Source: Psammoneis japonica (lineage: Eukaryota). Taken from it: a stretch of 64,000 nt of DNA. Within the stretch, counting starts at the first letter, position 1. Every line of letters begins with the position of its first letter. The DNA is taken from positions 307,330 to 371,329 of the forward strand of contig QPGO01000032.1 of assembly GCA_008632985.1 (NCBI GenBank), given 5' to 3'. The notes beneath the pieces were generated by a model. The model worked only from the letters and a program-made list of their open reading frames with translations. It had not been told where the DNA came from and searched no databases. Positions 25,790 to 64,000 of this stretch are shown piece by piece. Both the position numbers and the translations under genes were made by a program.

Positions 25790-28700
25790 CATTCGGGAAC
25801 GCTGGCATCAAAGGTGCTCATGCGTTGAGTTTTGAACTTTTCGTTCTTTGAAAAGTCGTCAGTCACGAGTTTTCGGGACTCAACGGTCGGCTCGGCGCGC
25901 AGATGGCAACCCTCCTGCGCCGCAAAAATCATCTCCCAATCCAAGACTGCAACAACAGTCAACAAAACACTTCAGCACCCATTGCACTGCTTCTCCCTCT
26001 CAATGGGTCATTCAAACACTAAGATACAACCTTGTGTGCCATCTTTCGATGCATGCACTTTGCTTTGCCTCCTCCCTCCGCACTGACTCATCTCCCACCC
26101 CCCTTTCTGCTGAACGCCCACTCTTCCGCTGCTGCAGCCACTCCCGTGCTTCTTTGTGCTGTTCATTTTCATTTTCAACAAGCTTTTTTAACCCTGTGAT
26201 TAGCAAAAGGGACAAAGACATAGAAGGTGGAATGACCATCTTTGCCCTCAGTGCATGCAAAGAGCAGCAGCATCAGAAGTGACAAGGGGTGGCAGAACAA
26301 TGCTGTTTCTGCTGCTTCTTTTTCCTCTCTTGGCACGTTCTACAAGGGTGATGTAGCTGGCCTCGACTCTTGTGCAATTTGGAGCAAGGAATTTTGGGGG
26401 ACATGTGGCAGAAAGAGGCCACCCATGATGATGTGTTGTGGCACAAGCGAGTGGTGTGCGAAAAAAAAAACTGAGAAAATGCTGCTGAAAAAGTGAGCAG
26501 ATCAAACAATGATGGTGCAATGAGCTAAACTGAAATGCACGCAGACACATCACAATGACTGTGTGCATTGCCCATGCACTGACATGGCCATTGTCAACAA
26601 CAACTGAGCGAAGCTGCAATTGAGACACAGCAGCTGTCACGTTTTCAAATGCTGTGACATGACAAAAACCTGCAGAGGGAAAAAAGCAGGAAACAGGGCT
26701 GAACAAAAGGAAAACCAGCCTCAATGGAGAATGATGGCCGGTGCAAAACAAAATTGACAAAGACTGGCACATTTCTAAAAACCCAAAGCATGCCCCATGA
26801 GACAAGATGCTCACATTGCAGCACCACATTCTTCCAAACCACAAGCATCATTGCCCATTGCACAACCCAATGTGGGTCAAAAATGACAATGAGTTGACCA
26901 ACTCTAAGAAACACAGCAGGGGCAGCAAGCCTGTTGCCATTTTTGCATCTGCCTTCCACACCCTGTTGCTTGCCATCATCACTCTGATGGTGCCAACTCA
27001 GTCACTGGGCACTGGGCCCAGTCTTTTTGCCTTGCTTGTTTTTGTCAGCTCCCCCCCCCCCCCAGGACAATGCAGAGAGCTGATGAGCTGAAAAATTCAA
27101 GATCAGCTGAGTGTCATGTGTGTGCATGTCTTGGAGTCTGCACAAGGAATCCAATCACACAGAGAAGGACATGCAGGTGGGAATTCTTTCACATCATCTG
27201 TCAATGACAAGGATCATGTTGAGAGTGGGGAGCATCTGCCTCAGCATGGGGCTGGCAGAAAATGGGAAACAAGAGGTTTTGCACACACTGCTCCTTGACA
27301 ATGATCTTTGACAATTTGAACCCAAGTCAGAAGTGCACCACCTCCCAACAACTGGAGTGAATTGTGAAAACCTGCCAGACATTGTCACATTTGTGTGTGT
27401 TTGATGGTCATGTTGTGAAGCTTGCAACAAAGCACACCATGATGCATGCCACAGCACCTTGTCAAAAACTTGTTGTCTCTGTGTGGCATTTTGCACAAAA
27501 AAGAGAGACTCTGCCACCCTTGTGAATGCACTGTCTTCTTCATTGTCAGCACCCCCAATGTTGCTTGCAGCAAGGCTGCCCCAGAGAGAGAGAGAGAGGA
27601 GAGAGAGAGAGACTCAAGAAAACAGCACAGGACAAAGACCTCTGTTGACACTGCTGCTGCTCTTTCACATCAATGGCAAGTGCAAAAGCACTCTCTGCTT
27701 GCTGAATCAAATCAAGCAGCCATTTTTTCAGCTCAGCAGGTGACAGTGCGCAAAACTTAGAGCACCATCAATTGAGCTGGTTTTGGAGGTTGAACTTGCT
27801 TCTTTTGGGGGCAGCAGCTTAAGCCACAAGAAGTGTGGTGTTCCAAATTTGTCACTTGGTCTGACAGAATGACAGTCAATTTTTCCAGCAATCACAGATC
27901 TGCAATGTGCGTGATGCAACATTTTTGAACTGTGTTCACTGTGTCATTGTGACACAACACAATTCTTTGGTGTGGAGCAAATCTCCACCCATGGAGATTT
28001 GCTCCATGGTGGTTGAAGGGTCAAATCCTTGCCTTTCATCAAATGTCAATTTGGAGCCCTGTTCACAATTTAAAGCAGCTCTGCTGTGAAACAAATGGCA
28101 GCTTCAACCCAGATTGCAGAGTGGGTCAATTTGTGCTTCATTCAGCACCACTTTTAAGCTGCTGACTGACAAAAAAATGTGCCACAAACACAAACACAGT
28201 TTCTTGTGGTGCCAAGTCATTGGAGCTGACATGGCTGCAATTTGATTTGGTGTGTTTTGTTTTAGTCTGTGCTTGCACACTGGCACTCTGTTTTTGGCTG
28301 CAGCAGCAGATTTCTGGCTGCAGGCAGTGTCAACCAATTGCCAGGATTGGCTGCAATCAGCCTCACTTTGATTGCAATTGCTGTTGCAAACTGATTGCAA
28401 TGACCTGATTGTCAGGAAAGAGCCAAGGTTGCAATCACAATCGACTGTTGCAATCATTCCAATCAAAATTGAGCTCTTTTTGTGGCTGAAATCAGCAAAA
28501 CAGCTCAATTTCTTTGCCTGCAGTGGGCTTTTCTCCTTGCGGAGTGTGCTCTTGCCAGAGAGCACCCCTGCGTGGGGGGCGCCTGGCTGGCAGGGTGATG
28601 CTGCAGAAAACTTTGCAATTGGTGACACTGGCTGCAGGTGAACACCAAGTGGCATCCATGCTCTCTGTGCAGCTCTTCCTTGTGCTTTGTGAGTGCACTG

Positions 28701-44191: not shown

Positions 44192-45340
44192 TTAACTTTT
44201 GTTTCGGAATAGCAGTAGCTCCCTGCTAAGATTTCGAGTCCGAGATACATCCCAACCATAGCCATCCTCTCGAGCATTCTTCAACAGCTCAATCTTTGCC
44301 TCTTTTCCACGGCAATAATTAGCGTGGTAAGTGATGGGGTGATCATTTGCGGGACGTCCATTCTTACCAACGGGATAATCGAAGACATCCAAACAACAGA
44401 GACGAGCGGTTGTACTAGTCGATTTGGCTGTCTGCTTTGCGGATTCTCCAGCAACTATTGCATCGACCTCCTTGCCAGTGCAGTGTGTAATGCTTTCACT
44501 TGGCGCATGGTCAGCCTGCTTTGTCAATCCAAATCCCAAGTAGTGAAAAACTCTCCAGAACATGGTTTGGTCGTCCAATCGATTCATTGGGTGACCGCAG
44601 AGCCTGAGTGTTTCTTGAATCACTTGTTGGTAAAAGGCGTTGGAGTGAGACAAATAATAAAAACCGGTATTCCCCTCTCTTGGAATTTCGCCCTGCGTTA
44701 AGCAGGGGTCCGAGCGCGATGTATTGAAACGATGAGCTGGCTGGTAAATGTAATCGTACCGCCGCGATTGGATGAGTTTGCCAAGGTCGTGCGCAAAGGG
44801 ATTCTCGAAAAAGATATTATCGCAATCCGAAAACACAACATCAAATTTGCACCCTTGCAAGATGTGCAAGACCTGTCTCAATTTGTTACAGGAAAGAGTG
44901 TTAAAGCCCCTCTCGCGAAAGAGCATTTCGCCTTGGACCGCGTACTCTGGATTCGTCGGCACGACTCTGGCACCCTGTTTTGTGAGGACTCGGTAAATAT
45001 CCTCGTCCAAGGCTAAAACTGCCCACTGTAGATTTTGTTTCCCAGCCAAGTACTCCCAGTTTTGAAGAATATCGAGGTAGCCATAATTAGCAGCTGTCAA
45101 GATGACAGTCCTTTCCCATCCTCGTCGTTGCTCCTCATGAGACGTATCGTTGCGAAAGACGCCCACGGCCTCGCGCACTGCCAAGGGACAACGATCAGCC
45201 TTACGAAACATTGAACTGCTGGCATCGCTAAAGTAGTCCCCAAGAAAATGCTGGTACGAAGATATCCATGTCATTACAGCCACGCCAACACAGAAAGAAC
45301 AGAGACGGCCTCGGGAAAATAGTCGCGTCTTTCGTCGCAT
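44192..45340 (-). CDS. Nucleotide-diphospho-sugar transferase (GT77-like)
   Basis: Type II anchor; TAANYGYLDILQNW, VVFSDCDNIFFENPF, NTGFYY, DDQTMF, YHANY. Confidence 0.9.
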   Translation of the reverse strand: MRRKTRLFSRGRLCSFCVGVAVMTWISSYQHFLGDYFSDASSSMFRKADRCPLAVREAVGVFRNDTSHEEQRRGWERTVILTAANYGYLDILQNWEYLAGKQNLQWAVLALDEDIYRVLTKQGARVVPTNPEYAVQGEMLFRERGFNTLSCNKLRQVLHILQGCKFDVVFSDCDNIFFENPFAHDLGKLIQSRRYDYIYQPAHRFNTSRSDPCLTQGEIPREGNTGFYYLSHSNAFYQQVIQETLRLCGHPMNRLDDQTMFWRVFHYLGFGLTKQADHAPSESITHCTGKEVDAIVAGESAKQTAKSTSTTARLCCLDVFDYPVGKNGRPANDHPITYHANYCRGKEAKIELLKNAREDGYGWDVSRTRNLSRELLLFRNKS

Positions 45341-46719
45341 TTTTCTCAGAGACTTTTTGTGCCGATCTTAGTCAGTCGCGTCTCTACTGTTGCTTCAAGG
45401 AAGGATCTATCTTTAACAGCGATTGGAGGGTATCTTATCCAACTACTGTCTATACCCTGGATTCAATGCATTGCCTGTGAAAGTTGAAAGTGAAAAGGTA
45501 AGGTGTAAATACCGGTGCCGATACGGTAAGGTTGTTGGTGTTGGCAGTTAGTTGAAGCCGAATGCCGGTCGAACGAGTCGAGAGGTGGCGCGCAGAGTGC
45601 ATGCATTTTGTTGTTTTTTTTGGTTTTTTGTTGCTTTTTGCAGTTTTTCGTTGTTGTGAAAATCGTGTTTGTTCCCCCGTTTGTTTGGCAAGACAAAATG
45701 CAACAGAGCGCCACAGCCGGCCCACCTTGGTTCAGGGGTGGGTGCTGCTGGCTGGTGCCTTGGCAGGTGAGAGATGTTGAGAGGTGCAAGTTGCTGTCAG
45801 AGCAGTGGGAACAGAGCTGCTCTCTCCTCTTTGCCCCCCCCCCCCCCCCCNTGCTCTTTCTTTTTTCATGCTCGCTGCTCTGCTCGGAGAGATCTTCAAC
45901 AGCCAACCCTCTGCTGGTGCAAGTGAAGTGGCAAAAACAAAGGGGAAAAGCTGTCTGGCTGCACTGTGTGAGCCCAGGGGCAAGGCAGCAGCACCCTGGA
46001 TTGCCGGCATTGTGAAGTCACAGCAGCAAGAGATGAGAACCCGCTCACAGCGTGCCACACATGAGAAAACAACAATCCCATGGCAAGTGTGCATGGCACA
46101 ACAAAAAAGGGGGCAGCCAGTTTTAACTTGGCCCTTAAATTTATTTTTCAATGCTGTGCCACCTCCCTGGGCAGCACTTTTTGGCTTTGCCTTCTTGTGG
46201 CACACTGTTTGAAAGCTGCCTGGTGTGATTTTTTGTGTCATGAGGAAGAAGCAGCAGTCTCCACCACTGAGCACAAAAAAAACAGCCTCTGGAAAAGAGC
46301 AGGGTGTGGGTGCAAATGTTCAGCTGTGGTGCCAATTTTGTTTGGAGGGCAGGATTGGAGCTGTGTGAGTGCAGCAGCAGGGTGAGAAAGTTGAGAAACT
46401 TCAGGGCAAGAAATGTGAAGTGAACAAACAGGGGCACCCCCTGTTTCACTTGTTGCACCCACGCTCCAACCAGCACACTGCCTGCCAACCACATCTGGGA
46501 CACCAACAATCTGGGTGTCAAACACCTCCCATCAAGATTTTTTGAAATGAAGCCAGGCAAATTCTTCATTCAATCCAAGACTTTGCCGATTTGTCCAATC
46601 TGCATTCATGAAATGTTCGACAACAAACGTCTGCATTCCTGAAGTTGACATTTTCTCTGCCGCATGCACAAAATAATGACTCTCTGCAAATCATCACTTT
46701 TTTCTTTCTTGCTTTGCAC

Positions 46720-49700
46720 CATGACCACTCCCTCTCCCTCTCCTTCTCCTTTGGTCAATGTCAAGCTCTTGGCTGAAGTTCTCCACCCTGCCGACCTTCC
46801 TGACGTGCCTGCTGTTGCCCTCACAACTGATGCCATTCGTGACATTGTTCTCAAGATGCTCAAGCATCATGATCAGCATGTCTCTCCACTTCTTTTCACC
46901 CTTGGCTCTGTGATGCTTTCTCAAACCAAGAAACGCTCCTGTCCCCATCAGAGCCAGTGGGCTTCCCACTTTCATGTTGCTCTCCATCCCGTGGTTCCGG
47001 AAGGGTCTGCCTTTGACTTCCTCTCCTTCTGCAATCAGGCGCTTTCCTTTCTGCTCCAAAAGTGGCACCTTCATCCCATGTCCCACTTCGCTGTGTTCTG
47101 CTCCATCAGTTCCTTCTCTAACTTCCCACACCCAGACCATTCGCTGGCCCCGTTGTGGACAACCCATGGGTGTGGCATTGCACCTTCATGACACCCACTT
47201 GCAACTTCTTTGATGAGAAGGCCCATGGCATCCTCGCTGGCCCATCCCCTGCCCTCTGTGGTGCCTCTCGGTGCACCTGCAAGTTCCTTTTGTTGCATCT
47301 CCACTCCTTCCTTGTTGGGAAAATTTCCAGTGCTGCTGCCAACCCCATTCTTCAATCCTTTCAAGACTGTCCTGCCTTCCTTGATCTCATTGGCATTGGA
47401 CCTTCCCAGTGTCCCGCCAGCTCTTCTCAGCTCCGTCACTGTTCCCTTTGAGTCTTCTGTGTCTCTGCTGCTTCCAATGCGGTTTGGAACACTCTCCTCA
47501 ATGTCGCCAACCCACCCAACTCTCCGCCTGCTCCATTTTCCATTTTGGGCACTTCTGCTGCCATCACCCCCTTTCCTGATTCCGCCAACTTCTCTGCTGC
47601 TTACAATGGCCTGTCAGAGCTCATCTCCTGCCAAAGCAACATGGTCGTGGTTGTCTCTGATTGGCTCAAGCTTCCTTTGACTCAGCCCAGCATCACCTGT
47701 CTCCTCTCTGCTGCAAACCTTCAGTCTCTCATTCCTGTGTTCTCTGCCCATGATGCCCTTCCAATCAAGTGCAAGCTCCTCCTCTTCCCATCTCCTTGCG
47801 CCATCGCTCTTGCAGATTCCAACCTGCACAACTGTTCCGGCTTCCCCTCCAACCTCCTTGCCTCTGAAATGGACACTTCCCTTGCTGCTGATGCAGCCTC
47901 CCCATCCTGTGCCTCTGCTGCTCATCAGCCACGCCTGCCCCCTCTTGTGACTCTTTTTCCTGTCAGGCTCTTGAGCTGCTTGCTCAAGATTGGCAGATCC
48001 CTGAGCCCCAGGATCTGCCCCCTGCTGAGCCTCTTCCATGCTTCCATCCACAAGCTTGCTCTCCAAATGCTCAGCCTCCTCCCTCCAAACGTCCCCACCC
48101 TTCCTCCGACACTTCTGCACTTCCAACTGATGTTCCTGATGCAATCATGCAGACTGAGGCTGATGACTCTGTCACTCCTCAGCAGCCCCAGTGCGAGATG
48201 GAACTCTTGGACACTCCTCTTTACAAAGCCGCTGCTTGGGCTGCATCCCTGACCTCGCTTCTCTCAGCGACCTCATCGCCTCGCAGAACCCACCAAACCC
48301 CTTTTGTTCCTGGTCTTTTTCATCTGCAGATGCTTCCTCACTGCCTGCTGCTGTGCGTGGCCATCTTCACCAGGAGCATCCTCGCCTGTCTCTTTCCCAA
48401 GTGTCTGCTGCATTCTTTGATGCTGCTGGCTTGCATGTCTGCAGACATTGCAATCACAGCCAATGTGCCTGCTTCTCTTCCATGCACCTCCACAATCACT
48501 TGCAGAATGAGCACTTTGCTCCCTGCTCCACCCTTGATGCCAACATCATCCTTTCATCTCTCCCTGACATTGGTGACTGGCACTCTGCACTCCAATGGCT
48601 TCACTCTTTCACACCTGTGCCTCTGCCTTTCCAAGCTTCCTGCTGCCACAAGCTCTCTCTTTCTGCCAAGAAAGAGCTCTGCTCTGCTCTTCACCATGTG
48701 GTGCGCTGGATCCTTGCTTCCTCCCAACCCCTGTCTGATCCCACTCATCTCATTCCTTTGTGGCAGCGTGACTCTGAGCCTTTTTGGAAGCTGCTGTTGC
48801 TCTTTGAAGCCCTTGTCCTTGCCCCCATCCCTTGGTGCTCTAAATTTGCTCCCACTGTCACCTTGCACCTGGCTCTCTTCCATTGTGGCTCCATTCACCA
48901 GCTCCATCAAGAAGCCTGTTCCCCATGCATCTCGCCTTTCTGTCTCTCCTCCCAACTTCTCCGCCTCCCCCTGCTGTTTTTCCACCCAAGTTTGTGCTGA
49001 TGAAGACAACTTCCACTCCGCCTGCTCCAAGCTCACCTCCGCACTTCCAGCAGCCGCTGTTGCCCCCAAGTGCCTCCTCAACATCCTCAAGCTCTGTCCA
49101 TCCCGCCTGCATCCCTCCAACATTCCCACTGCTCCCTCAACTTGATCTGCTTCCTCCCTTCACAATGAGCCCATTGAGCTCTCCGTCAATGCTCTCCTTT
49201 CTGCTCTTTCCAAGTGCAAACCTGGCACCGCTGCTGGCATCTTTGCAGACTCCACTGATCTCTTCAAATCTTGTGTGCTCCACTCTGCCAGAACCCCACA
49301 GGAGACTCCCAGCATCCTCATTTGCCCTCCTTCCGTGAGCTCATCCTTCTTCTCCTTCATGGCTCCATCCCCTCCTCCATCCATCCCTTGCTTGCCTCGA
49401 ATTACTTTGTCGCCCTCCACAAGGATGCCACCGATCTGGAGAAACTCCATCCCATCGGTGTTGGAACTGCCCTCCGACATGTCACCGGCTTGGTCATCAT
49501 GACCCTGTTTGGCTCTGCTTTCACAGAATGCCCCCTTCCTGATGGTCAATTTGGCACTGGTGTTAAAGGCGGCCTTGACTGTCTCATCCATTCTGCCCAT
49601 GCCAACATTGGGCTCCATCTTTCTGTGGCAGATCCAGCCAAAGTCCTCCTTCTTTTGGATTTGGTCAACATGTTCAACGAAGCTTCCTGTGATGCCTGTC

Positions 49701-49993
49701 ACCACCCACTTTCCTCCATTGATGCCTTCCACCCACTTCTTCCCTTCTTTGATCTTGTGTGCCAAAACTCCAATGCCTGCTGGTGTTGTCGGCCAGACTC
49801 CACCTGGGATTCCTTTGTTCAAGAAGAAGGCTTTGCCCAAGGCTGCCCCCTTGGTCCTGTCTTTGTGAGCCTTGTCCTCTCTCTTGTCCTTTGCCTGATT
49901 AACCAAGAACTTGGTGAGTGCATTCCAGGCTGCTCTCCCACCTCTGTGGGCTCCTTCATCAATGACGCCCATGCTTTTCTTCCCCATCCATGA
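46720..49993 (+). mobile_element. Decayed non-LTR retrotransposon (CRE/RLE-like), truncated just after the RT catalytic motif; 5' end approximate
   Basis: C2H2-like CRHC...HLHNHLQNEH; RT motifs FVALHKD, LHPIGVGTALRH, QFGTGVKGG, LDLVNMFN, EEGFAQGCPLGP, FIND (degenerate [YF]xDD). Confidence 0.85.
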
Positions 49994-50054
49994 CTTGTGA
50001 GAAGCATGAGATGCGCTTCACTTTTGTAGACTGTCTTGTTTCTTCAGGCATTGA

Positions 50055-50600
50055 GAAGGAAAAGTGGGTGTCATGTGCAGTCAATGTGCAGTCAATGTGC
50101 AGTCATGCAAGTGAGGGGTGATTTTTGTGAGCATGTGTGCAGTCTGTGCATGCAAAATTCAAGTGGATTCTGGTGCCACAGTTGGTGTGTTGGGACGCTG
50201 TTGTTGTCTTGTCAGCAGCACATTGGTGGTCTCTGCAGACAGCAGGTCAGTGTTCCACAGTTTGGGCATCCTGCCATTGTCTCAGGGGATTGTGCATGGC
50301 ATTCCCACATCTCAGATCAGCTCCAGACATCCCAATGGGAGGATGGTGCAGGTTTGTCCCTTTACAAACATTGAAGGGCCCTGCTCTGGATGGGCTGGCA
50401 CTCGTTCAGACAGAATGCCAACCTGCCATCTACAGAGACTGCCATGGTGCTGCTGACAAGAAAACAACAGCATCCCAACACACCAGCTGTGGCACCAGAA
50501 TTCACTTGAGCTTTGAGAGCACAGACGGCAAAACTTGCACATCAAAACCACCCCTTGCTTGCATGACTGCATCAACTGCATGATGCCCACTTTTCCTTTT
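50055..50600. repeat. Long imperfect inverted repeat (foldback / MITE-like), arms ~250 bp
   Basis: ttctggtgccacagttggtgtgttgggacgctgttgttgtcttgtcagcagcac on the left matches the reverse complement of ~50447-50500. The + and - ORFs 50036 and 50312 both read FWCHSWCVG.LL.SCQQH. Confidence 0.9.
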
Positions 50601-50829
50601 TGGAAACAGGGTCTGTGTTGTGCAAAATGAGACAAAAAACATGCAGAGTGACATTGTCATGACAATGTTTGCTTGGGGCAATGTTGCCGGCCGGCAACTG
50701 CCACTGCACCACCACCATGCAACTGCAGTGTTTAAAAAATGGGGGACAGCACGCACGTGCAGAAAAAAACTGAAAAACAATTCTCAGAAAAAATTGCTTC
50801 ACCTCAATGACCTGTCAGCTTTGTTGCAT

Positions 50830-50985
50830 GTGATTGTGCCATCTCCTCTTGTCACTGTGCAGCATGCCAGAGCACCGCTTCATCTGCTGTGGGCACAAAA
50901 GGCTGCCGTGATTGTGCCATCTCCTCTTGTCACTGTGCAGCATGCCAGAGCACCACTTCATCCACTGTGGGCACAAAAGGCTGCC
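50830..50985 (+). repeat. 78-bp tandem duplication
   Basis: tgattgtgccatctcctcttgtcactgtgcagcatgccagagcacc...gggcacaaaaggctgcc twice. Confidence 0.95.
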
Positions 50986-51049
50986 AATCACTGTTGCACT
51001 TCCTTCTTGAAAAAGATGGGATGTCCTTTGATGACTTGTGCACCATTCT

Positions 51050-54000
51050 GAGGCACTGAGCAATGCTGCAAAGCAGAGCAATGCTGCATTTTCACATCAA
51101 CGCCAACTGGCTTTGTTGGAAATTCATCCATTGCACAAGTGGCCCTGCACACTCCATGGTTGGTTTTGCTGTGCTGTTTGCAGCCACCAGCATGGATGTC
51201 ATTGTCGTGATTGACAACTTGACATCATGACACCACATTGAAGAAGGCTGCTGTTGTGCATGATGCAGTGGCAGAGCAAGCCAGAGTTGATGCCATGCAG
51301 TTGCAAAAACATTTGTTGGCTCTGACAGACAAGTCCAGAGATCCAGAGCTCCTGCAAGGTCAGGTGGCTGAGTTGAAGGAGATGATCAGCCGGCTTGAGT
51401 CCATCATCAACACCAAGGTGAGCACTGTGCAGAAACAATCTAGTTTTTTTTGCATTTGTGCCAGATTTCTGCCATGCTGTTGCCAGTTTGCTGCTGGACA
51501 TTGCTTCAAATGTTGCTGTCATGGAGGCCAAGTTTCAAGCTGATGCAGTCATTTGCCCTGCTGCAGTGCATGGCAAATGTGAAGTGGCCACAGCCAATGA
51601 CAATGACTTCCCCATGTTGGTGGGAGATCCCATGCTGCCAGTTCATGATTTCAAACCTGAAAGAAACAAGCAATGGCATGGATCTTTCCAGCTGGCATGA
51701 TCTCATCTGTCTGTTGTGGAGGAAGCTGTGTGTGATGTTCTTAAACAGAAAGGGGAGAAAACAACTTGCCAAGGAAATGAGTCCATTTGGGACAGACAAT
51801 TTCATGTTGCACATGGCTGTTGTGGTTGGAATGGACTGTGATGATGATCCAGGCAGAGCATCCAATGTTGGCTCAGCTAAAATTTGAGATCTTGTTGGAG
51901 AAAAAGGATTCAGTGCTGAACAATTGTTTCAGCACTGTTCCAAGGAGCAGAGACGGGTTTGCCAACGGCAGTCTTCAGGACATTTGCGCTGGCAATTTTG
52001 TGCAAGCTGGGAGACACTGTTGATGATGACACCAGCACAGCAAACAACAAATGCACCCATCACAATCCTCCTCCAACAACCTTTCCAGTGTTCCTTAAAG
52101 AATTTGGCAGTGGCGGCTCTGTGGAGACAGACAAAAGCCTGGGACTGGCTCAACGCTGCAGCTCCAAAGCAAGTGTGCACTCTTTCATGGAGGACAAGGG
52201 CTTGCATGGATTTTCTTTGATCAGATGAAATGAACAAGATGGAGGTGGCTGCTGTTGTTGGTTGCCTGCAGTGCCACAGAGGAAGCAAGCATCCCAGCAT
52301 TCCAACGTGCACTTCCAGACACCCTTGTTGAAACCTGTGAGGGTTCTGGAGTCAACAACAATGGCAAATGACTGATGCAATGGGTGTGTCATCATTCAGA
52401 AGATGCCCAGTTGCCACCCATCAGCAAAGCTGATGAAGCCATTGAGCTCATTGATGGCAAGGCTTGCCTTTGTGTTAAAACCAAAATCCATGCATCAATG
52501 AAAGGGATGCATTGCCAAACCGTGCTTGCCTTTCAGAAGAAGGCCTGGCTTGTTGCAGCTATAATTGCAAGTCAGGAAGTCACTGTGCCAAGCATGTGGT
52601 TGATGTTCATGTTCTGGAAGCCATGCAAAAACTGCCCCACTTGTTGTTGAACAGTCTTGCAGCACATGCTCACCATGAGCTTGCTGTGCAATGGGGCAAT
52701 GCAGAGCCTGCTCTTGAAAGCATGATGAAGAAAGTCTTGTTGATGACTTGCAATGGCTGGGGTCAGTTATGAATCCAGCCAAGCACTGTGCCACCATCGA
52801 TGAGTCAAAAACAATGTGAGAGCTGCTCAATGACCATGCTGTTGGAACAGAGAAATCCAAACTGATGCCAGAACCACCACCGGCATGGCATCTGTGCAAA
52901 CCGCTGAGAGACTGTCAGCGCATTGATCCATTGCAGAAATTGATCAAGCATGTGCAGAAAGCAACAAAAACAATGAACAGCGATGCAACTCTGAGTGCAA
53001 CTCCCATTGGGATGCCCAACTGGGCTTTGATGGCAGCTGCCATGGATTGCTTGACAGACCTCCAAAAGGATGAAACTGGTCTCACACAAACAAATCACAA
53101 GAGGAAGCATCCGGCTTTTGACTGCTGTGGGAGCAATCCAAGGTGAGTGCTGTCTGCTCGCATTTGATGATTCATCAGTGCAAAGCAATGCCATTGCTGC
53201 TGTTGCAGAGGTGTTGGGGAGTTGCAGCAGGCCCACAAAGCAAAAAGCTGCTGCTGAGTTGGTGCAAAGGGCCAGGGGTGGAGTGATGACAAGGAGCAAA
53301 ATGGAGAAGCAAAAGAAGAAGCAACAAAAGCATCACACAGGGCACAAGAGTTGCTGCTTCAGAAATGAGCATTGCAAGAATGGTGAGCTTGCTCATCAAA
53401 TGCATTGAGTCACCACCATGCCAACACGTCCTGCTGTGTTGGCCCCAATGGACAAAAGGGACAGGAGCTGGAAGTCACACCATGAGAAACCAGCTCTGCA
53501 TTGAGAGTTGTTGGACAGTCTTGGTTTGTCAAGAGATGACAAATGTGAGGATCTGAGATGCTGTGATGACCATGGGATTCAAGAGGAAAAAAAAACATTG
53601 TGCATCAGTTTCATGATCCCAAAGACTTGTGAATCGAGTGCAGGAATTGACCAGCACCCAGTCACTCTGTAAATTGCTTGCACTGCAAGTGCAAAATCAT
53701 CCTTGGCAGATTCATCAAGCAGCAGCAGGGGTGAGCTGTTGAGAGAAGGAAACTTGCAGAAATCAAGTGGCTGCAGCACAACATCATGGCAAAGGGGTGA
53801 ATGGAGAATTGGCAGCATTGCAGCCAGGTGGGATTCAAAGCTTGGAAGCTGATGGAAGAGAGGGATTGACAGGTTTGCCCACAATGCAAAAAAATTTTGA
53901 AGGCAATTTTGCAACCAATTCTCCAAGCTGCTCAACTCGATGTGCGCCTGAAGGACTTGCCTGGAAAGAAGAAAGCAAGAATTGCACAAAACAATCCAAC

Positions 54001-55260
54001 TCTCTCAAGACTTGCCAAGAGAGACAGAATTGTCCCATCGTCACACCAAAAGGCCTCCACCCAGAACAGGTTGATGAGAAAACTGGATTCTTGGATTTGC
54101 TCTGTTTGCATTGCCACGTTGTGATTGTTTGCGGTGGAGACATGGAAGTTGCAAAGAGCTGTGTTAGCTCACTCACTTGGCATGAAGAATGGTGCGCATG
54201 CTTTGAGTTTGCATGGAACAGAACAGTTGCTTCAATCAGCAGCCTTGCCAGCAAGTGCAACGCAATGCCAAAGGTTGTGAAAAAGGTGCTGACATCAAAA
54301 ATGGCAGCAGTCAAGGTGGTGCGCAACAACTGGCTGAGGCATGCAACTGTTGCTCAAGATGAAAAATTGCTGAGTGAGAAATGGGTTGGGCAAAGTGAAG
54401 CAAAGCACCCTGTGTTCCACAGCAACACTGGAGCACCTCATGAAAACAATGGCAAGCCATCAGATGCTGAGTTGCAGTGCCTGACTTGCTCCAGCTGCTG
54501 TGATGTGTGTGGGGGCAAGGGAGGCACATGCACCCAACCCTGCGGCTGAATGGGGGCACACTTGAAATTCACCCAGGAGCAATGTCAGACTCAGATCATT
54601 TCAACAAAAGTGGGCTGCTTGAGGTGCAGCAGAAATTCCAAGAGGAAGATGGTGGAACATCTTTCCTCAACATCCCAGATCAAGGTCACCAATCCACGCA
54701 GGTGGCTTGGCAGAGTGAATGCCAGTTTGTGCTTTGGCTGACATTTTCTCAGAATGATCACAAATTCAACACATGTGAAGTGCTTCAGTTGTCGTCAGTG
54801 GCAGCAGATGGGTTGGGCAATGCACAGGCTGTCCATGTCTCAAAGTCATTGGGGTGTGTCAAAGTCGGCATCAAGGTCAACTCAAGTGCCAAAGTGCAAT
54901 GAGCTTGTGACATCTGGCTCACCCTTGGATTTCAGGCCAACTTTGTGTGCACAAGCCTGCAACGTAAACAGCAGCTGCTTTGCAGTGATTTTAATTGCAG
55001 ACTCTTTTTGGTCATTTGGAACTCTCAGTTTGGTTTTACCGTGTAATTTCTCAAAATTCACTGCACGCGAGAAATCCAGTAATCCGTTTATTTTTCCCAG
55101 CAATTTGCGTTTTTTCTGGAACAATATACTGGATTGGAATTTTTTAACGGATTAATTACTGGATGAGGCATTTTGGGTAAAATAATGACCTAATTACTGG
55201 GACATTCCAGAAAACGACCTTTTTTTACCGGAATTATTTCTGGATGCCTTGCATCGTCCG
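51050..55260 (+). mobile_element. Decayed PIF/Harbinger-ISL2EU-like DNA transposon: XPG/FEN1-like nuclease, SWIM-like finger, THAP-like segment and DDE_Tnp_4-type transposase; ends approximate
   Basis: EAKFQADAVI...ANDNDF and DCDDDPG..NVG..KI (XPG-I/H3TH); IHASMK...CSYNCKSG...VHV; LRCCDDH; KPSDAELQCLTCSSCC..GKGG..QPCG, GAMSDSDHF, DQGH, GNAQAV. Confidence 0.75.
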
Positions 55261-55698
55261 TTTTTCCGTTAGATGACGCGACAATACAGTGTGTCAACGA
55301 TCATCAACGTTCATTATTGCGCACCTGTGCTTGCACCATGATGATAAAAGCCGCAACCTCATTCTTCATCTCTTTCGTTGCTGTGTTCCGTTTGATGCAA
55401 ACAATGACAGAATGACAAAGCGTTGGCTCTGCAAGTGTTTTTCATTTCTTTGGCCGTCAATTTCCGCAGCGAGGCAAGCATTGTGGTGTTTGTTGGCCCC
55501 ACTCCACCCAAGTTCCCAAGAAAGCCATCTCCTGAGCTTTTGTTTTTCGCGCATTGTGGTGGTCCCCTTCTCTTGTGGCAAGGATCCACGACGGTGCACA
55601 CATCCGCGGGGCTCCGTGCTTCTGCATTCCGTCACACACACGGCGGACGTGTGGCGACTGGCATCTCCCCACCACCAATGCATCCAAGAAAGACCGTG

Positions 55699-55833
55699 GT
55701 CATGCCATGCTTTTTTCATCAGTGGGAGCCACATCGGTCCATCGGTCCAATGATTTGCGTCAGCCAGTCATGCCATGCTTTTTTCATCAGTGGGAGCTGC
55801 ATCGGTCCATCGGTCCAATGATTTGCGTCAGCC
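55699..55833 (+). repeat. 68-bp tandem duplication
   Basis: gtcatgccatgcttttttcatcagtgggagc(ca/tg)catcggtccatcggtccaatgatttgcgtcagcc twice. Confidence 0.95.
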
Positions 55834-56249
55834 GATGCGAGCGCAGTGTCGCTCCGTCCTTGTCCCCATCCGCGGCAGCGGTGTCGCGCAACGTGACGAT
55901 TGATGCCATGTGTCTGCCTCACCTTCTGGCTCTCCCGACTTTTGGTCTGTCGCCTGGAGGACTGCTGTGCCTTCGTCAGCTTGTCCCACAGCATTTGTCT
56001 GTCGTCTGATTTGGGCGGTGCACCGAGTGAAGCTCTGCACGGAGGCCCCACTGATGAACCTTCTAGTGCCATCCCTCTGATGCGTGTCAAGCCAACATCC
56101 AACCGGCGAATCTAGTGTGTCACCGTCTTTTTCCTCATCAACAGCACACCCAGTGACGTGCCTGCACTGTTGCCCTTTGCTCGTTGGATCCCTTTCAGTT
56201 GTCGATGATGAACTCGGTTCCTCTGGGACGCAAAATGTGCACGGTGTGC

Positions 56250-56847
56250 ACCAAACTGTCACATGTTGTTTGTTTTGCCAGTTCTCACATGTTTTCTGAC
56301 ACGCGTGGCATGCTTTTGGCTTTGCAATTTCCCCTGCACAGTCCATCTCCCTCCACTCCGAGGTTGCAACATAGCGATCTCTTGGTGATTCATTGTCTGG
56401 ACTTGTGATGTGCTTTTTTAGCCACGGCAAGAAGAGGCACTCGTGGAGAATGTCTTCTGCCACGAAGTTGCTGCATGCATTGTCACAGACCGCCGCCGCA
56501 GTGCACTCCGTCCACCCAAAGTGCGTTGCCCCGAAAATTTCCTCTCCCTCATCTTGCACACGTTCAATCTCAATGCACCTTTCTCCTTTTACAGGAATCC
56601 CATGCTTGCCGTTGCCAAGACACAAAACAGACAGCAGCTTGTGTTTCCGAAGAGAAGCTTGAGCTTCCTCCTCATCCTTGCACAGGGGATGGGGCTTGTA
56701 GCGGATTCTTTCTTTGTAAGTGTCTGAACCATTGTCGTCAGTGCCGTTGTAATCGTCTGCTTCATCTTCATCAAACTCGACCTCAACGTGTTCTGTTTCG
56801 CCTTTGCCCTCGCCTCCCTCTTCCTCCATCTTGGTTGGCTCTGACAC
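56250..56847 (-). pseudogene. Degenerate protein-coding remnant, probably transposon-derived
   Basis: Protein-like reading (acidic stretch, KLLSVLCL, HECLFLPWL, YVATSEWREMD) inside the repeat block; family not identified. Confidence 0.4.
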
Positions 56848-57104
56848 TCTCTTTTTTGCACCCTAGAATGCGAATTTGACAGCGAGTGAAGGAAACATCA
56901 AGGGTGTGTTGTGCTTGAATGACAACACATCACTTGCTGGGAGGGTGTCTCGCGTCATTCCCACTCTGACGCAGGTGAGTGTTCTCGTCTAGATTCAGTT
57001 TTTGTTGTTGAGAGTTGGCCCAGACACTCTCTTCCAGACACCCTAGAATGCAAATTTGACAGAGTGCAGGAAACATCAAGGCTGTGTCATGCTTGAATGA
57101 CAAT
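56834..57104 (+). repeat. Two diverged ~90-bp copies spaced 180 bp apart
   Basis: gacactctctt...accctagaatgc.aatttgacag...ggaaacatcaagg.tgtgt..tgcttgaatgacaa near 56842 and 57023. Confidence 0.85.
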
Positions 57105-57389
57105 GCAGAGGGTCACAGAGAAGGGCGCGGATCGGGATTGTTTTGTTGTGGGGGTCGCGTTGAGTTTTCCAGGAGCGCCAGTGCATCAAATGTGTCAAAA
57201 CATTAAATCTAAATGACTGATGAAGTTCTGTGCATTTGCTCTAGATGACTGCCACAGAATGGTTTCCATTGTTTGCTGCCACAGAGAGGAGCCGCCATTT
57301 GCTGCGGAATTTGCTGTGAAGTGTGTCTGTTGATGAGAGTGGGCGGAGAAAGTCATGGCCACGGCGGCTGTCACTCCACACAGATTGAT

Positions 57390-58120
57390 GGCACCAACCA
57401 ACCCAACAACTGCAGCCAGAGCACATTGGGGGTCTTTGGTGGACCCCAGGCAGGCTTTAAGAACTGTGGTTGATGCTTTCAAGGCCACTCTGGCACAGTT
57501 GTTGCCCCAGTCACTTTACACCACAATGAGGGTGAGACTTGAAACCCCAACTCCACAGTGAAAGAATGCCATGAATGCATCAACCAACCCAACAACTGCA
57601 GCCAGAGGGCACTGGGTGCCTTTGGTGGACCCCAGGCAATGCTTTGGGAACTGTGGTTGAGAGTTGCAAGGCCACCCTGGCTCAGCTGTGGCCCCATGTT
57701 GCTTCAGCCCACACCGCGCCAAGGGCGAGACTTGAAATCCCAAGTCCACAGTGAAAGGACACCATGAGTGCACCAAACAATCCAGCAACTGCAGTCAGAG
57801 GGCATTGAGGGTCTTTGGCGGACCCCAGGGGACACTTTGCGGGGTGTGATTCTGAGAGTTGCAAGGCCAGCACCCTGGCTCAGCTGTGGCCCTGGCCGTG
57901 TCACTTCTCACCATGCCAAGGGTGAGACTTGAAACCCCAACTCTGCAGTGGAAGGATGCCATGAATGCACCAACCAAGAACCCAACAACTGCAGCAAGAG
58001 GGCATGGAGATCTTTGGCAGACCCCAGGCAACACTTTGAGAACTGTGGTTGAGTTTTGCAAGGCTGTTCTGGTGCAGTTGTTGCCCTTGTGTCACTTCAC
58101 ACCACTCCAAGGGTGAGACT
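57390..58120 (+). repeat. Tandem array 1: ~4 diverged units of ~186-197 bp
   Basis: caaccaacccaacaactgcagccagag...gaccccagg...gggtgagacttgaaaccccaa starting near 57391, 57577, 57770, 57967. Confidence 0.9.
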
Positions 58121-58199
58121 GGATGAGCACCCCAATTGTGTCACAAAAAAGTTGTCAGCTGAGAGCTCTGGCCATTTTGCTGTGCTCTTTGGGTGGGTT

Positions 58200-59400
58200 T
58201 TGAGAGCTTTCAATGTGGTTGGCTTGGTTCATCTGGTGTTGTTTTGGCCCAACATTGCCCAAGACCAGCACAAGACAGACTTGATCACCTCATTTGGACA
58301 ATGGATGGACACCTCAATGCAACAAACTGACTGTGCAGTTGTCAACCAAGGATTCTGGCCTGCTCACTGTGTCCCTGAGGTGGTTTTTAAGAGCATTCAT
58401 TGTGGTCAGAAAGGTTCATCTGTCGTTGTTTGGGTCAAAATCTTGCCCAAAGCTGGCAGCAGACAGACTCATTTTTTGTCTGCTGGACAATGGATGGGTG
58501 CCTCAAGCATGGCAAATGAACCAAACAGCAGTTGCTTGCAGAGTGCTGCAGACAACTCAATGTGACCCAGGGGTGGACTTCAAGAGCAGTGGTTGGCTTG
58601 GCTTGTCTTGTGTTGCAGTGTTGGCCCAACATCAGCACCCCAGCAGTCTGCAGACAGACTCATTTTCTGTCTGGACAATGGACAGATGCCCCAAGCATGG
58701 CAAACAAACCAAGCAGCAGTCAGTTGCTTGTGGAGGGCTCCAGACAACTCAATGTGACACAGGGGTGGACTTCAAGAGTGGCAGCTGGCTTGGCTCATCT
58801 TGTGTTGCAGTGTTGGCCCAACGTCGCCCCAGCAGTCTGCAGACAGACTCATTTTCTGATTTTCTGTCTGGACAATGGACAGATGCCTCAAGCATGGCAA
58901 ATGAACCAAACAGCAGTTGCTTGCAGAGGGCTCCAGACAACTCAATGTGACCCAGGGGTGGACTTCAAGAAAGGTGGTTGTTGGCTTGGCTCATCTTGTG
59001 TTGCAGTGTTGGCCCAACATCACCCCAGCAGTCGCTGCAGACAGACTCATTTCCTGTCTGGACAATGGACAGATGCCTTGAGCATGGCAAACAAACCAAA
59101 CAGCAGTCAGTTGCTTGCAGAGGGCTCAGGACAACTCAATGTGACCCAGGGGTGGACTTCAAGAGTGGCAGCTGGCTTGGCTCATCTTGTCTTGTGGTTT
59201 TGGCCCAACATCACCCCCCAGCAGTCTGCAGACAGACTTGTTTTCTGTGTCAAAATGGTCACCTCACGCATGACAAACACACCAAACAGTTGCCAGCAAA
59301 GGGCTCCAGCCAACTCAATGTGACCCAGGAGTTGACTTCAAAAGTGGCACTTGGCTTGGCTCATCTTGTGATGTTGTTTTGGCCAAACATCACCCCAATC
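58200..59400 (+). repeat. Tandem array 2: ~6 units of ~180-194 bp; related degenerate copies at ~61080-61740
   Basis: caactcaatgtgacccaggggtggacttcaag near 58561, 58753, 58946, 59140, 59320; tgtgacccag again near 61247, 61391, 61631. Confidence 0.92.
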
Positions 59401-59479
59401 TGGGATCTGGCGCAGGTGCCTCCTCCTCTTCCTCACTCAAGAACACTGTTTGTGTCCAAAGGACAATCATCTCAAAGGG

Positions 59480-60960
59480 TTGAGCACAGTTTGGGTGGCT
59501 TGCTCAACTGCAGTTGTGGTGGCAAAGCAAGTGTGCAAAGCAATTTGCCTGGTTGTGGTGGCAGAGCAGCCTCTGTGAGTGCAGAGCTGCACATTGGCCA
59601 GGTGTCAGCCAGCAGAAAAGTCACTTGTGACAAAGTGTTTGCAGCTTTTTCTTTTGAGCACACTCTGCATGTCCCAAGACACAACCTCAATGTGTTGAGC
59701 ACAGTTTGGGTGGTTTGCTTGACTCTGCAGTTGTGTTGGCACCAGAGCAAAGTCTCGGAAGCCTGTGGAGAAACCTGGTGGCACCAAGGTTTTGGCCACC
59801 AGAAAAAGTCACTTCTGCCCAACCTTTTGCACTCTCAGCTTCTGAGCACACTCTTCACATCTCAATGCACAAAGTCAAAGGTTTGAGCACAGTTTGGGTG
59901 GGTTTCTTGGTTGTGGTTGTGCTGGCACAGAGCAGCCTCTGGGTGTGCAGAGAACCCTGGTGGTGAGGTGTTAGCCAGCAGAAAAAGTCACTTCTGCCAA
60001 AGTTTTTGCAGTCTTGTCTGCTGAGCTTGCACTCTGTCCATGTCCCAAAGGACAGTTTCAAAGGGCTGAGCACAGTTTGGTTGGTTTGGTGGGGGGGAGT
60101 GTGGCTGTGGAACTGGAGCAAAGTCTGGGGAGCCTGCAGAGAAACCTGGTGGCACCACAAAGTTTTGGCCACCAGAAAAAGTCACTTTTGCCAAACCTTT
60201 TGCACTCTCACCTTCTGAGCACAATCTTCACATCTCAGTGCACAATCTCAAAGGCTTGGGCACAGTTTGGGTTGGTTTCTTGGATGTGGTTGTGCTGGCA
60301 GAGCAGCCTCTGGGTGTGCAGCAGAGCAAACAGAAAAAATCACTTCTGCCAAGAGTTTGCAGTCTTGTCTTCTGAGCTCACTGTCCATGTCCCAAGGAAC
60401 AGTCTCAAAAGGCTGAGCACAGTTTGGGCAATTTGGTGGAGTGTGGCTGTGGAACTGGAGCAAAGACTGGGCAGCCTGCAGAGAAACCGGCAGTGGCACC
60501 AAAGTTTTGGCCACCAGAAAAAGCAACTTCTGCCAATTCTTTTGCACTCTCAGCTTCTGAGCACACTCAACCTCAAAGGCTTGGACACAATTTGGGTGGG
60601 TTTCTTGGCTGTGGTTGTGCTGGCAGAGCAGCCTCTGGGTGTGCAGAGAACCCTGGTGGTGAAGTGGCTCTGTCAGCCAGCAGAAAAAGTCACTTCTGCC
60701 AAAGTTTTTGCAGTCTTGTCTTCTGAGCTCACTGTCCATGTCCCAAGGAATGGTCTCAAAGGGCTGAGCACAGATTGGGCTGGTTCTTTCTTGACTGAGG
60801 TTGTGGTGGCAGGGCAGCCTCTGTGTGTGTGCAGAGTTCTTGTGTGATGGCCAGGTGTCAGCCAGTGGAAAAAGTTGCTTCCAACTGATGCAAAAAATGG
60901 TTTGCACCCCAAGCTTCTGAGCACACTCTTCCTGTCCCCAGACACAATCCCAAAGCATTG
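59480..60960 (+). repeat. Tandem array 3: ~8 units averaging ~180 bp, alternating A/B subtypes (higher-order dimer of ~350-370 bp)
   Basis: gagcacagtttgg-like anchor near 59482, 59697, 59885, 60068, 60258, 60416, 60583, 60766; agaaaaagtcacttctgcc-like motif in most units. Confidence 0.88.
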
Positions 60961-63900
60961 AAGAACAAGTGTTGGCCAGCAACAGAAAAAGCTCCCTCTG
61001 GCAAATTGTCTGCACTCTCAGTTTCCTCCACTGACCCACAGGCACAAACTTCTTGAGCTGCTGATCACAGCTTGGTTGGGTTGGTTTTAGCCACAATTGT
61101 GGAGCGGCAGTCGGCTTGGGTTGTCTTGTGTTGTTTTGGCTCAACATCACCCCAGCCTGACAGCAGAGGCAGACTTGATCTTTCCATCTGGACAATGGCA
61201 GACACCCCAACAAGTCATCAGCTGGGAATTCTGAGGACCAACTCACTGTGACCCAGGGGCAGAATTTAAGAGCATTTGTTGTGGTTGGCTTGGCTCATCC
61301 TCTTGTGTGTTTTTGGCCCAACATTGCCCCAGACCAAGAGCAACAAACAAATCAAACAGTCGTCAGCTGAGAGTTCTGGCTGACTCACTGTGTGACCCAG
61401 AAGCATGCTTTCAAAGTCTGCCCCTTGAGAGAATTCATTGCAGTTGCCTTGGCTCATCTGGAGTTGTTTTTTTTGGCCTGGCATTGCCCCAGGCTGCCAG
61501 CAGATGATTTTCCACCTGGACAACAGATGGGCACCCCAAGTGTGAGGACAAAAAAACCAAACTTTTGTCAGCTGAGGGGTCTGTCCAAATTGCTGCACCC
61601 CTGAGGGTTCCAGCCAATTTGCCAATTTGCTGTGACCCAGGGGTGATGGGCTTTAAGAGCATTCATTGTGACTGCCTTGGTTTGTCCTGTGGTGGTGTTT
61701 TGGCCATGTGATGCCCCAGCCCAGCAGCAGATGCAACAAAACATTCCCCCTTTCAAGTGTTGAACACCTCAAGAAGCAACAAAGTTTGCTGACATGCAGC
61801 AACTGTGTTTGCCTTGTTCTTTCCAACCAAAAAGAACATGCAGTTTTTGGAAAAATGGAGGAATTCAACCACACTTGCAATGTTCTGAAACAATGGCAGA
61901 GATGGGACACCACATTGCATCAACTCAATGCTGAGCTTTGAGACAGACAACCACAGGTTTTGGCCCTCAGAAAGGCTGGGAAGACAGGTGTTGCTTGAGA
62001 GTCATCATCTTTGCACTTGTGCTCTGAGGCACCTTGCTTCAACCTGGATTCTTTCATTCAGTTTGGTCACAAAATGATCCCAAGGTGAGCTTTGCTTGAT
62101 TTTTCTTCTTTCAGGGAATTCCATCAACCACCAACAACTTGCCAATTGGAGCGAGCATGCACCGCGTGATGCCACTCCCCCAAACATCAAGCACACAAAA
62201 AGACAAGTGATCCCATCAACTTCAAATGTTTCAACAGCTTCTTTGTGCAGCTCTTGACCATTTCTTTCTGTGCAAAACACACACAAGCTAACAGCACCTG
62301 TGTCAGCTGGGTTCATTGAGATTGGAGAAGAGGCAAAGTGAGCTCCCCTCCAGAAGTCAGAAAGTCAGCAACAACATCGTCAATTCTGGTGCTCTTTGTG
62401 AACTTTTGGGTGGAGAATGTTCTCCAAGATGAGGCCATTTTAGTTGCCTGTCCTTTGTGATCTGATTTGCCCAAGAGTTGTTGGCACTGCAATTGTGGTG
62501 GTGAAGATGGGGGCAATGTCCCCCCAAAGCCATCGCAGTTCTTGTGCCCATTGGCTGGGAATCATGTGAAGACATGCCAACTTGCTTTTCTGGCTTTTGT
62601 TGTTCCTGCCGGTGATCTGCTCTTGCCTGCTTTCTTTCCAGCCCCTGACTCTTTGATCCTTGCCTTCAACTTCTCAATCTCAGCAAACCTGACTTCTCTG
62701 CCTTTTTGCCAAGCCAGGTGTCTCTTTTGTTCAGCGACCCGTCCAAAGACATTTGCCATCTGGCTCCACTTTTGATCTGGAAGACTTGCATCAAGCTGAG
62801 CCACCTGCTGCAGGTGCAGGTGCAGTTGGGCATCCTTGTCTGAAGCGCCACTCTCCCAGCCTGTGTGCCATCATGAAACACAGTGGCTGATGCCAAGATT
62901 TTGTTTGCCGGTGCTCATTCTCTGGAAAAATGTTCTGCTGGCATCCCTTTCACAGTTTGAGGAGTCTGGTGGGTGAGTCAAGAACCCCCCCCCCCTCTGG
63001 CACTCCAAGGGACAACCAAATGAAGAAAGTTGGCAGCAGTGTGTGCCTCCCGTCTCTCTGGCTCTGACTCTCATCTGGCTGTTGCCCACATGGGGGCAGT
63101 GCTGGCTTGGTGGAGGAGGGTTCCCCCATCTGCAGAGCCTGGGCATGCCCTCTGGTTCTGGTGCCTTTGTCTGTGTCCAGCCGTGTTTGCCTCACACAAA
63201 CAATGCAGGGGTGCCAGGCTGAACTTCGCATTTTTGACAACTCGCCTCCTGTTTGCGCCAGCTGCACATTTTCTGTGGTCACCCACAACATGCACCCTGT
63301 CATCCCTTTGAGCAAACCCACCACAGATCACCTTGTGGCAGCAAGTCAAGAGCTCTGGACAGTGCCAAAATGGGTTGTCATCGCCCTTCACACATGCCAT
63401 GATGCTGAAGATGGGATGTCTTGAGCAGGGAGCACTCTATCTTCCTGCACGTTCCTTGCAACGCATTGAGGGAAGACAAATTAAAATCCTGGTTGGATGC
63501 ACAATTTGTTCAAATGCTCGTCACCCTTGATTTTTGAGAGGTGTCAACACACCCCGCATTGAAAATGTCCATGCAATTGGGCATTCACACATTTGCACAG
63601 ACAAACACAATTTCAAATTGCCAAAATTTTGAACATAAATTTGTGTGTCCTTGAAAACACAATGCTGTGATTTTGACCCAAGAAAAACGAAAAACCATCC
63701 AAAAAGCACAAGACCATCACAATCCAAGAAGCAGCGACACCATGGCCTCAGGATCCGTTGTTTGCCGCAGATCCAGGAAAGCACTGTTTGATTTGCTTCA
63801 GCAAGTTCATTGCATCATTGTCATTGCTGTTGCAGCTGTTGAGTCTAATTCTTTGTGGTGTGCCTTTCATTTGTGCAGAGCAAAGGAGAGAGCACGCGAC

Positions 63901-64000
63901 GGTCAAGAGGCTTCTTTTTCGCGTGGCGTGGCCAACCTCGCTGTCAACAACGTTGCTGCCAACGGGAACACGGGAACCCAAGAAATGGAAGAAGGGGCAA

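Follow-up and report, generated by a model that had tools for sequence, protein, structure and literature searches.

In this study, we describe a stretch of diatom DNA that holds no TA dinucleotide and is still well supplied with CG. The stretch (hereafter the segment) covers 717 bp at positions 55347-56063 of the window, by which we mean the whole 64-kb piece of DNA that was analysed. A preliminary description had claimed zero TA and about 45 CG for it, and recounting gives 0 TA and exactly 45 CG (A124 C214 G181 T198), with an observed/expected ratio (o/e) of 0.83 for CG and a GC content of 0.55. The TAs nearest to the segment lie at 55345 and 56064. The likely explanation, in our view, is a decaying multi-copy repeat in a diatom, of which the segment forms the non-coding part and in which a TpA-specific purge would have run to completion and CpG loss would be partial.

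Base composition predicts 34.2 TAs for the segment (Poisson P(0) 1.3e-15), and the TA o/e of 0.57 found in the gene parts of the window predicts 19.4 (P(0) 3.9e-9). Zero TA is far less striking against the TA-poor remainder of the island to which the segment belongs (P ~0.003), where TA o/e is 0.17 and the expectation 5.9 (P(0) 2.8e-3). The segment is the most fully purged part of a TA-poor 2.4-kb island and no isolated anomaly. TA o/e is 0 and CG o/e 0.79 in the sub-part 55347-55830; the values for 55831-56316, which extends past the segment, are 0.09 and 0.83. TA-free runs of at least 350 bp number 25 in the 64-kb window, and the segment is the sole one with CG o/e above 0.42 (the other 24: 0.01-0.42). 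In the two gene-dense parts of the window, TA-free runs reach at most 191 and 174 bp, respectively. CA and TG together occur 135 times in the segment where 87 are expected (o/e 1.55). The resulting surplus, ~48 in all and ~31-35 once the gene baseline of ~1.17 is allowed for, is as large as the TA deficit.

Long open reading frames (ORFs) at 1-26 kb and 32-45.5 kb, on both strands and with few interruptions, encode ordinary eukaryotic proteins, including Vps52, Rab GDI, a SHPRH-like SNF2/bromodomain/RING protein, an F-box protein, an aldo-keto reductase and a sulfotransferase. The Rab GDI protein is 74-86% identical to mostly diatom proteins (Seminavis, Nitzschia, Amphora, Cyclotella, Thalassiosira). 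From this likeness and from the ordinary eukaryotic genes it follows that the window is diatom nuclear DNA. The gene parts are intron-poor and have TA o/e 0.57 and CG o/e 1.01. Three blocks of the window are purged of TA and CG:

26300-31100: fully purged block between gene clusters; per-kb TA o/e 0.03-0.06, CG o/e 0.04-0.12
46100-54960: fully purged block; TA and CG nearly absent, CA/TG o/e ~1.6-2.0, no recognisable protein domains
57400-63500: fully purged block that holds tandem arrays of ~190-bp units
57391-58064, 58459-59397 and 59550-60785: the tandem arrays of ~190-bp units

Together, the three purged blocks (19,760 bp) have a TA o/e of 0.044 (55 TA), a CG o/e of 0.14 (168 CG), a CA o/e of 1.71 and a TG o/e of 1.82, with GC content unchanged at 0.50. 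Pfam searches with 129 ORFs of at least 90 aa in purged and island DNA gave no match at the curated cut-off and five weak sub-threshold ones. Rfam gave no match at the gathering threshold for 45000-64000. Purged DNA shows little strand asymmetry of CA versus TG (values mostly within +/-0.1), and hence no hint of a strand-specific mechanism. At 47000-50000 the purged DNA has a strong strand skew (G-C -0.27 to -0.38, A-T -0.27 to -0.31), and CA and TG counts are nearly equal there. Purged DNA further contains an inverted repeat at 50138-50530 (110-nt arms, 85% complementary, 173 nt apart) and a 78-bp tandem duplication at 50830-50985 (96% identical), in which all three differing letters are changes at pyrimidine-purine (YR) steps (CG versus CA; TG versus CA at one step). 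A single N stands at a purged-block edge, at 45851. Upstream of the Vps52 gene, at 1332-2427, lies an 845-bp TA-free intergenic stretch with CG o/e 0.40. After 2176 the next TA is at 2427, the first ~250 bp of the Vps52 frame being TA-free with CG o/e ~0.9, and the 5' end of this host gene may itself have been touched by the purge.

The ~190-bp units of the tandem arrays vary chiefly in having TG or CA at a given step, and the diverged units are all without TA and CG. Units were delimited by hand, and the column counts are for whole units only (3, 5 and 7 in the three arrays), partial units being left out. Mixtures of TG and CA make up 23 of the 27 polymorphic YR columns; a mixture of GT and AC was found in 1 of the 44 polymorphic purine-pyrimidine (RY) control columns (Fisher p 1.5e-13 versus YR). 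The TG and CA mixtures therefore point to a purge in place, after amplification of the units, in which ancestral CG or TA steps underwent one transition each.

The 55 TAs surviving in purged DNA are preceded by T in 62% and by C in 25% of cases and followed by A in 56% and by G in 22%. TTAA accounts for 19 of them, and RTA and TAY contexts are almost gone. Gene TAs (n=1428) have a 5' T in 22% and a 3' A in 21%. Among the surviving TAs in the rest of the island, 10 of 14 are YTAR, six of these CTAG. Judged by the survivors, the purge appears to prefer RTAY and to act poorly on YTAR.

The segment lies in an island with the following parts:

54960-57400: CpG-retaining island of ~2.4 kb, a multi-copy repeat set in purged DNA (CG/TA map, contig depth)
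54965-55346: AT-rich unpurged block; TA o/e 0.60, CG o/e 1.13, 21 TA including RTA contexts
55347-56063: the segment, a TA-free CpG-retaining stretch; TA o/e 0
55699-55834, plus strand: 68-bp tandem duplication in the segment (TRF 2.0 copies, 97%; pairwise alignment)
55831-56862, minus strand: 344-codon open frame that crosses the island; only ~aa 24-184 conserved
56064-56787: island part; TA o/e 0.09-0.21, CG o/e 0.66-0.83
56317-56787, minus strand: conserved-domain remnant of an uncharacterised, lineage-restricted family (tblastn, 56314/56317-56787)
56788-57400: island part; TA o/e 0.16, CG o/e 0.51

The TA contexts of the unpurged block include GTAA, ATAT and ATAC, and the block contains short inverted and direct sub-repeats. 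A 36-bp piece of it (55024-55059) is common to other contigs, with heterogeneous flanks on one side: 10 contigs end loosely before it (55023/55024), and past its other end (55059/55063) 11 contigs diverge. The block is probably a younger mobile-element end. It adjoins the TA-free segment with a sharp edge at 55346, and its presence beside a purged segment requires the extra assumption of a later arrival. In the 68-bp duplication, 55699-55766 and 55767-55834 have one internal difference, CA versus TG at one step, and three of three CGs are intact in each copy. This split would most simply arise if each copy had undergone a single change, the ancestral step having been TA or CG. The sequence immediately before the ATG of the long ORF occurs again ~180 bp away (56836-56925 and 57017-57103); the two versions vary at a CG/CA step and at two TG/CA steps, and each has retained a CTAG. 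A self-comparison of the window in a purine/pyrimidine alphabet, which is blind to transitions, found no second copy of the island and only local tandem duplications.

Positions 55347-55830 are outside any conserved coding region, and 55831-56063 overlap the probably non-coding tail of the long ORF. An exhaustive search found five weak relatives of this ORF (E 3.6e-8 to 2e-4, 29-34% identity), which cover query aa 21-184 or ~24-184 and end 7-22 residues after. Because the homologues end so soon after the conserved part, the remainder (aa 185-344, the last 160 codons) is probably read-through in stop-poor DNA. This tail includes 55831-56063 of the TA-free segment. TA o/e in the domain remnant is 0.21. 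No Pfam family was found for the 344-codon ORF, there was no match among proteins of near its length, and Pfam gave nothing above cut-off for the five homologues, which are hypothetical or without name in their source annotation. Relatives of the domain alignment were also sought in metagenome contigs, where 0 of 43 pattern matches were confirmed. For one homologue (P0121) the best named lead in a protein atlas was DUF6830 (0.89, below the bar), with structural TM values of at most 0.28; the lead is sub-threshold and comes from a language-model look-alike search that led to DUF6830-bearing fungal proteins. Most of the homologues (P0121-P0125) carry an N-terminal motif region, NF.ALLNLP..M..FGPLRLLWEGG.KGEGIL. 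It was not found in the window by tblastn, only the C-terminal domain being present. Motifs like this N-terminal region may occur in large eukaryotic transposases. In the domain alignment, four columns have Tyr in at least four of the five homologues; at these the window copy has Tyr in two, Cys (TGC) in one and His (CAC) in one. Cys and His in place of Tyr are the products of TA to TG and TA to CA changes.

Other copies of the repeat were sought in a public sequencing run, in which 65% of sampled words of 54000-58000 are present. Its short-read contigs were compared with 51000-57390 at a likeness of at least 80%. Of the 170 contigs on this region, 56 are at least 99% alike, 39 are 95-99%, 33 are 90-95% and 42 less than 90% alike, and differences between copies are mostly transitions (430 versus 126 transversions; run X1). 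Summed depth over 54852-57390 is 214-487 versus ~65-70 for single contigs and therefore indicates ~3-7 related copies of the island repeat. The sister-copy comparison draws on 40 of 569 differences, 25 of them within the segment; eight of the latter are changes other than those given here. Within the segment, at least five places (55876, 55889, 55916, 56020, 56038) read TA in a sister and CA or TG in the window, and at least two steps (55909-55910, 56012-56013) read CA in a sister and TG in the window. One sister copy, ~11-14% diverged over 55845-56070 (~226 bp), has at least six TAs where the window has CA or TG; its CG gains and losses are about even, 3 versus 2 among the differences listed. 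Differences of TA versus CA or TG would also be produced by C to T changes at CpA in the sister copy. Every contig differs from the window at 56000, 56087, 56169, 56462-56472, 56576-56577 and 56910-56911. Possibly the run comes from a different haplotype or strain, the consensus mixes copies, or the filter dropped the contigs of the window's own copy.

How TA loss relates to CG loss can be followed along the window. TA o/e is below 0.1 in 101 of 319 windows of 400 bp, and these are distributed over the CG bins, from lowest to highest, as 58, 25, 14, 2 and 2. Among 171 windows with TA o/e above 0.4, none has CG o/e below 0.3. At this scale, therefore, TA loss occurs without CG loss and CG loss never without TA loss. 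The view put forward earlier, that TpA loss is no by-product of CpG decay, is upheld by the segment (TA o/e 0, CG o/e 0.83), by the 101 of 319 windows that are TA-poor at every CG level and, as far as the available part of the source goes, by TpA-only hypermutation measured in another SAR alga (bioRxiv 10.64898/2026.01.13.699255). As judged from sequence alone, a TA loss separate from CpG decay is supported. The earlier suggestion that it may act sooner or faster also gains ground: the copies of the 68-bp duplication differ by CA versus TG with all CGs intact, the diverged sister copy has at least six extra TAs at roughly balanced CG gains and losses, and the unpurged block abuts the segment at a sharp edge (55346). 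TA loss probably ran ahead of CpG decay in the segment copy. Three states lie side by side, namely the untouched 54965-55346, the TA-erased segment and the flanks erased of both TA and CG, and they fit a fast, possibly episodic TA process together with a slower CpG process.

The explanation we favour can be stated as follows. The multi-copy repeat of the segment would be a remnant, probably of a mobile element, in the diatom nuclear genome. Context-specific transitions in repeat-rich DNA would turn TpA into TpG or CpA (A to G on one strand or the other), and in the segment copy this process would be complete, with 0 of an expected 19-34 TAs left. A separate removal of CpG (C to T, presumably at methylated CpG) would have taken only a minority of the CGs, leaving a CG o/e of 0.83, and older neighbouring repeat DNA would have lost both dinucleotides. 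For the non-coding part we infer this direction of change from the sequence comparisons, together with a TA loss faster than CG loss and methylation as the cause of CpG loss. The candidate enzyme would be an adenine deaminase acting on DNA, by analogy with the leading idea of the preprint cited above. A putative mobile-element nature of the affected DNA is suggested by copy number, the shared 36-bp end and the sub-threshold DUF6830 lead.

The TA purge could be the same and CpG survive for another reason, if the island were unmethylated or its CpGs were selected as part of a promoter-like or functional element. The two processes would again be separable, and the segment would not inform on their relative speed. 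Such protection is suggested by the conserved-domain remnant and the duplicated upstream pieces within the island, and by further 400-bp windows poor in TA and rich in CG, which border on genes at purged-block edges (2001-2400, 63601-64000). By the formal definition of a CpG island (longer than 200 bp, GC above 0.5, o/e above 0.6) the segment also counts as one (717 bp, GC 0.55, CG o/e 0.83); the definition is uninformative here because genes of the same genome have a CG o/e of 1.01. The sister copies speak against protection. At least seven places read CG in a sister and CA or TG in the window, at least five of them in the segment (55636, 55640, 55988, 56000, 56055; further 56469, 56472). The reverse, a CG of the window changed in the sister, was found at 1-2 places among the differences listed (at least one with sister CA, at 56004; a complex change removes CG at 55896-55897). 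This imbalance, seven places against one or two, suggests that CpG decay has started in the island. Moreover, the ORF looks degraded, with Cys and His for Tyr and a stop-less tail, and CG o/e falls to 0.51-0.66 elsewhere in the same island. We regard protection of CpG as unlikely.

It is quite improbable that the segment was natively TA-free, or became so by selection (for instance against UpA in a transcript), without TA-specific mutation. There is no other copy of the segment in the window for direct comparison, which leaves some room for this idea, but sister copies have TA at homologous places, the surplus of CA and TG matches the missing TA, and tandem copies differ by CA versus TG. The same depletion extends over 19.8 kb of non-coding tandem and dispersed repeats, and there is no Rfam match. 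At its environmental locus, a remote homologue has ordinary TA (CDS o/e 0.58, upstream 0.87), compared with 0.21 in the homologous domain of the window. A natively TA-free source had been named in the preliminary description as a finding that would overturn it; with the TAs of the sisters and the CDS value of the homologue, such a source is largely refuted.

The window copy could instead be ancestral, the sisters having gained TA by RIP-like C to T changes at CpA or TpG. Some diatoms carry a DNMT4 related to fungal RID (PMC9998398, in the part available), and the observed differences are symmetric in form. All repeats of the window nevertheless have the opposite equilibrium (TA 0.04, CA/TG 1.7-1.8), and conserved Tyr is replaced by Cys or His in the window copy. 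In addition, 0 TA in 717 bp would go unexplained, since the gene baseline predicts ~19. An ancestral window copy is thus very improbable. We give hardly any credence to an assembly or base-calling artefact in which modified bases were systematically misread as TG or CA: all contigs differ from the window at several island places and the library type of the public run is not on record, but independently built contigs reproduce the purged sequence (2966 bp at depth 70 equal to 51269-54234 except for one letter, and 469 bp identical to 54623-55091), part of the contig depth carries the window's letters at the TA-relevant places of the segment, and even diverged tandem units are all without TA and CG.

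A wider reading is more tentative, and we judge it possible without counting on it. Diatoms may possess an episodic, targeted DNA-editing defence, in which adenine deamination at TpA with a preference for RTAY would run its course before methylation-linked CpG decay had advanced far. Shared by Rhizaria and stramenopiles, it would be an old genome immunity, SAR-wide or older. TTAA and YTAR would be poor targets for such a defence, TpA would be erased quickly from repeats and incoming DNA, and the locus would record three stages side by side: untouched, TA-erased, and erased of both TA and CG. As far as the literature searched shows, TpA-specific hypermutation of foreign DNA is known from a single chlorarachniophyte, described in one 2026 preprint. 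Its occurrence in a diatom, far closer to saturation, would if true bring in a second major SAR lineage, one with genetically tractable model species, and the process would be a general shaper of repeat landscapes and no oddity of one alga. Since the loss of TA stands apart from that of CpG at a single locus, their order and their independence become testable. Gene annotation in diatoms would be affected as well: purged repeats with few stops give rise to long spurious ORFs, their proteins become unrecognisable, and Tyr codons turn into Cys or His codons.

Several known systems invite comparison. Diatom transposable elements are CG-methylated via DNMT5, and some diatoms have a RID-like DNMT4 (PMC9998398, in the part available). 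As far as that part allows comparison, methylation-driven CpG decay resembles the fully purged blocks in its restriction to repeats, its loss of CpG and its gain of TpG and CpA. It fails for the segment, because TpA is not removable by it, and here all TA is lost and CG kept at 0.83. Strong CpG depletion, the mark of this decay, was not found in the segment (CG 0.83, CA+TG 1.55, TA 0). In fungal RIP, C to T changes at CpA create TpA and deplete CpA and TpG (so described in the available part of bioRxiv 10.64898/2026.01.13.699255). RIP is similar in that it is restricted to repeats or foreign DNA and degrades coding capacity by dinucleotide-specific transitions. Its direction is opposite, as the window repeats lose TpA and gain CpA and TpG; neither TpA enrichment nor depletion of CpA and TpG was found in them (TA 0.044, CA 1.71, TG 1.82). 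In dinoflagellates, another SAR lineage, 5-hydroxymethyluracil in DNA, a modified thymine, reportedly silences transposable elements. It is found preferentially at TpA and TpC. To our knowledge, no 5-hydroxymethyluracil is known in diatoms; in principle the base could give T to C changes at TpA, and we mention it as a lead only. Mutation accumulation in Phaeodactylum gave a GC to AT bias and mutagenic CG, CC and TG contexts, and no TpA effect is seen in the available part of that report (PMC6604790). The literature searched contained no diatom report of a TpA to TpG or CpA signature.

The closest likeness is to Bigelowiella natans, for which Mettrop et al. describe TpA-targeted hypermutation of integrated viral DNA (bioRxiv 10.64898/2026.01.13.699255; the comparison is with the available part of this preprint). 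Mutation-accumulation lines of this alga gained 231 changes in two integrated viral regions, of which 230 were A to G or T to C on TpA; the rate was ~6e-7 per site per generation or ~1000x the baseline, and it was seen in some lines only. Hypermutation of this type would be marked by changes of TpA to TpG or CpA only, independent of other contexts, and a DNA adenine deaminase, ADAT2-like, is the candidate enzyme. In the window, changes at CpG are superimposed on those of TA. The window shares with B. natans the loss of TpA, the gain of CpA and TpG and the sparing of host genes; affected windows are clustered in both, and the affected DNA is unannotatable or putatively mobile-element-like. The two window cut-offs of the preprint select 23 of our 64 1-kb windows, in runs of 6, 9 and 7; for the segment itself, Rho is 0 for TA and 1.55 for CA+TG. 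A process that is not constitutive, as reported for B. natans, agrees with the sharp edge beside the unpurged block.

The two cases also differ. B. natans is a chlorarachniophyte (Rhizaria) and the window comes from a diatom (stramenopile). De novo mutations were observed in B. natans, whereas the evidence in the window is a long-term signature alone. Depletion in the window is near saturation (TA o/e 0.02-0.06), compared with 0.45 in the NCLDV insert of B. natans. The targets in the window are tandem arrays and dispersed repeats in which no viral genes were recognised, in B. natans integrated viral DNA. Most of the affected window DNA has also lost CpG; the text of the preprint, in the part available, deals with neither CpG nor diatoms. 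The surviving TAs of the window are biased to TTAA and YTAR; an analysis of flanking bases was not found in that text and may be held in the supplements. By analogy, the locus is best filed as a candidate diatom instance of TpA-targeted hypermutation atop an ordinary, methylation-type decay of CpG.
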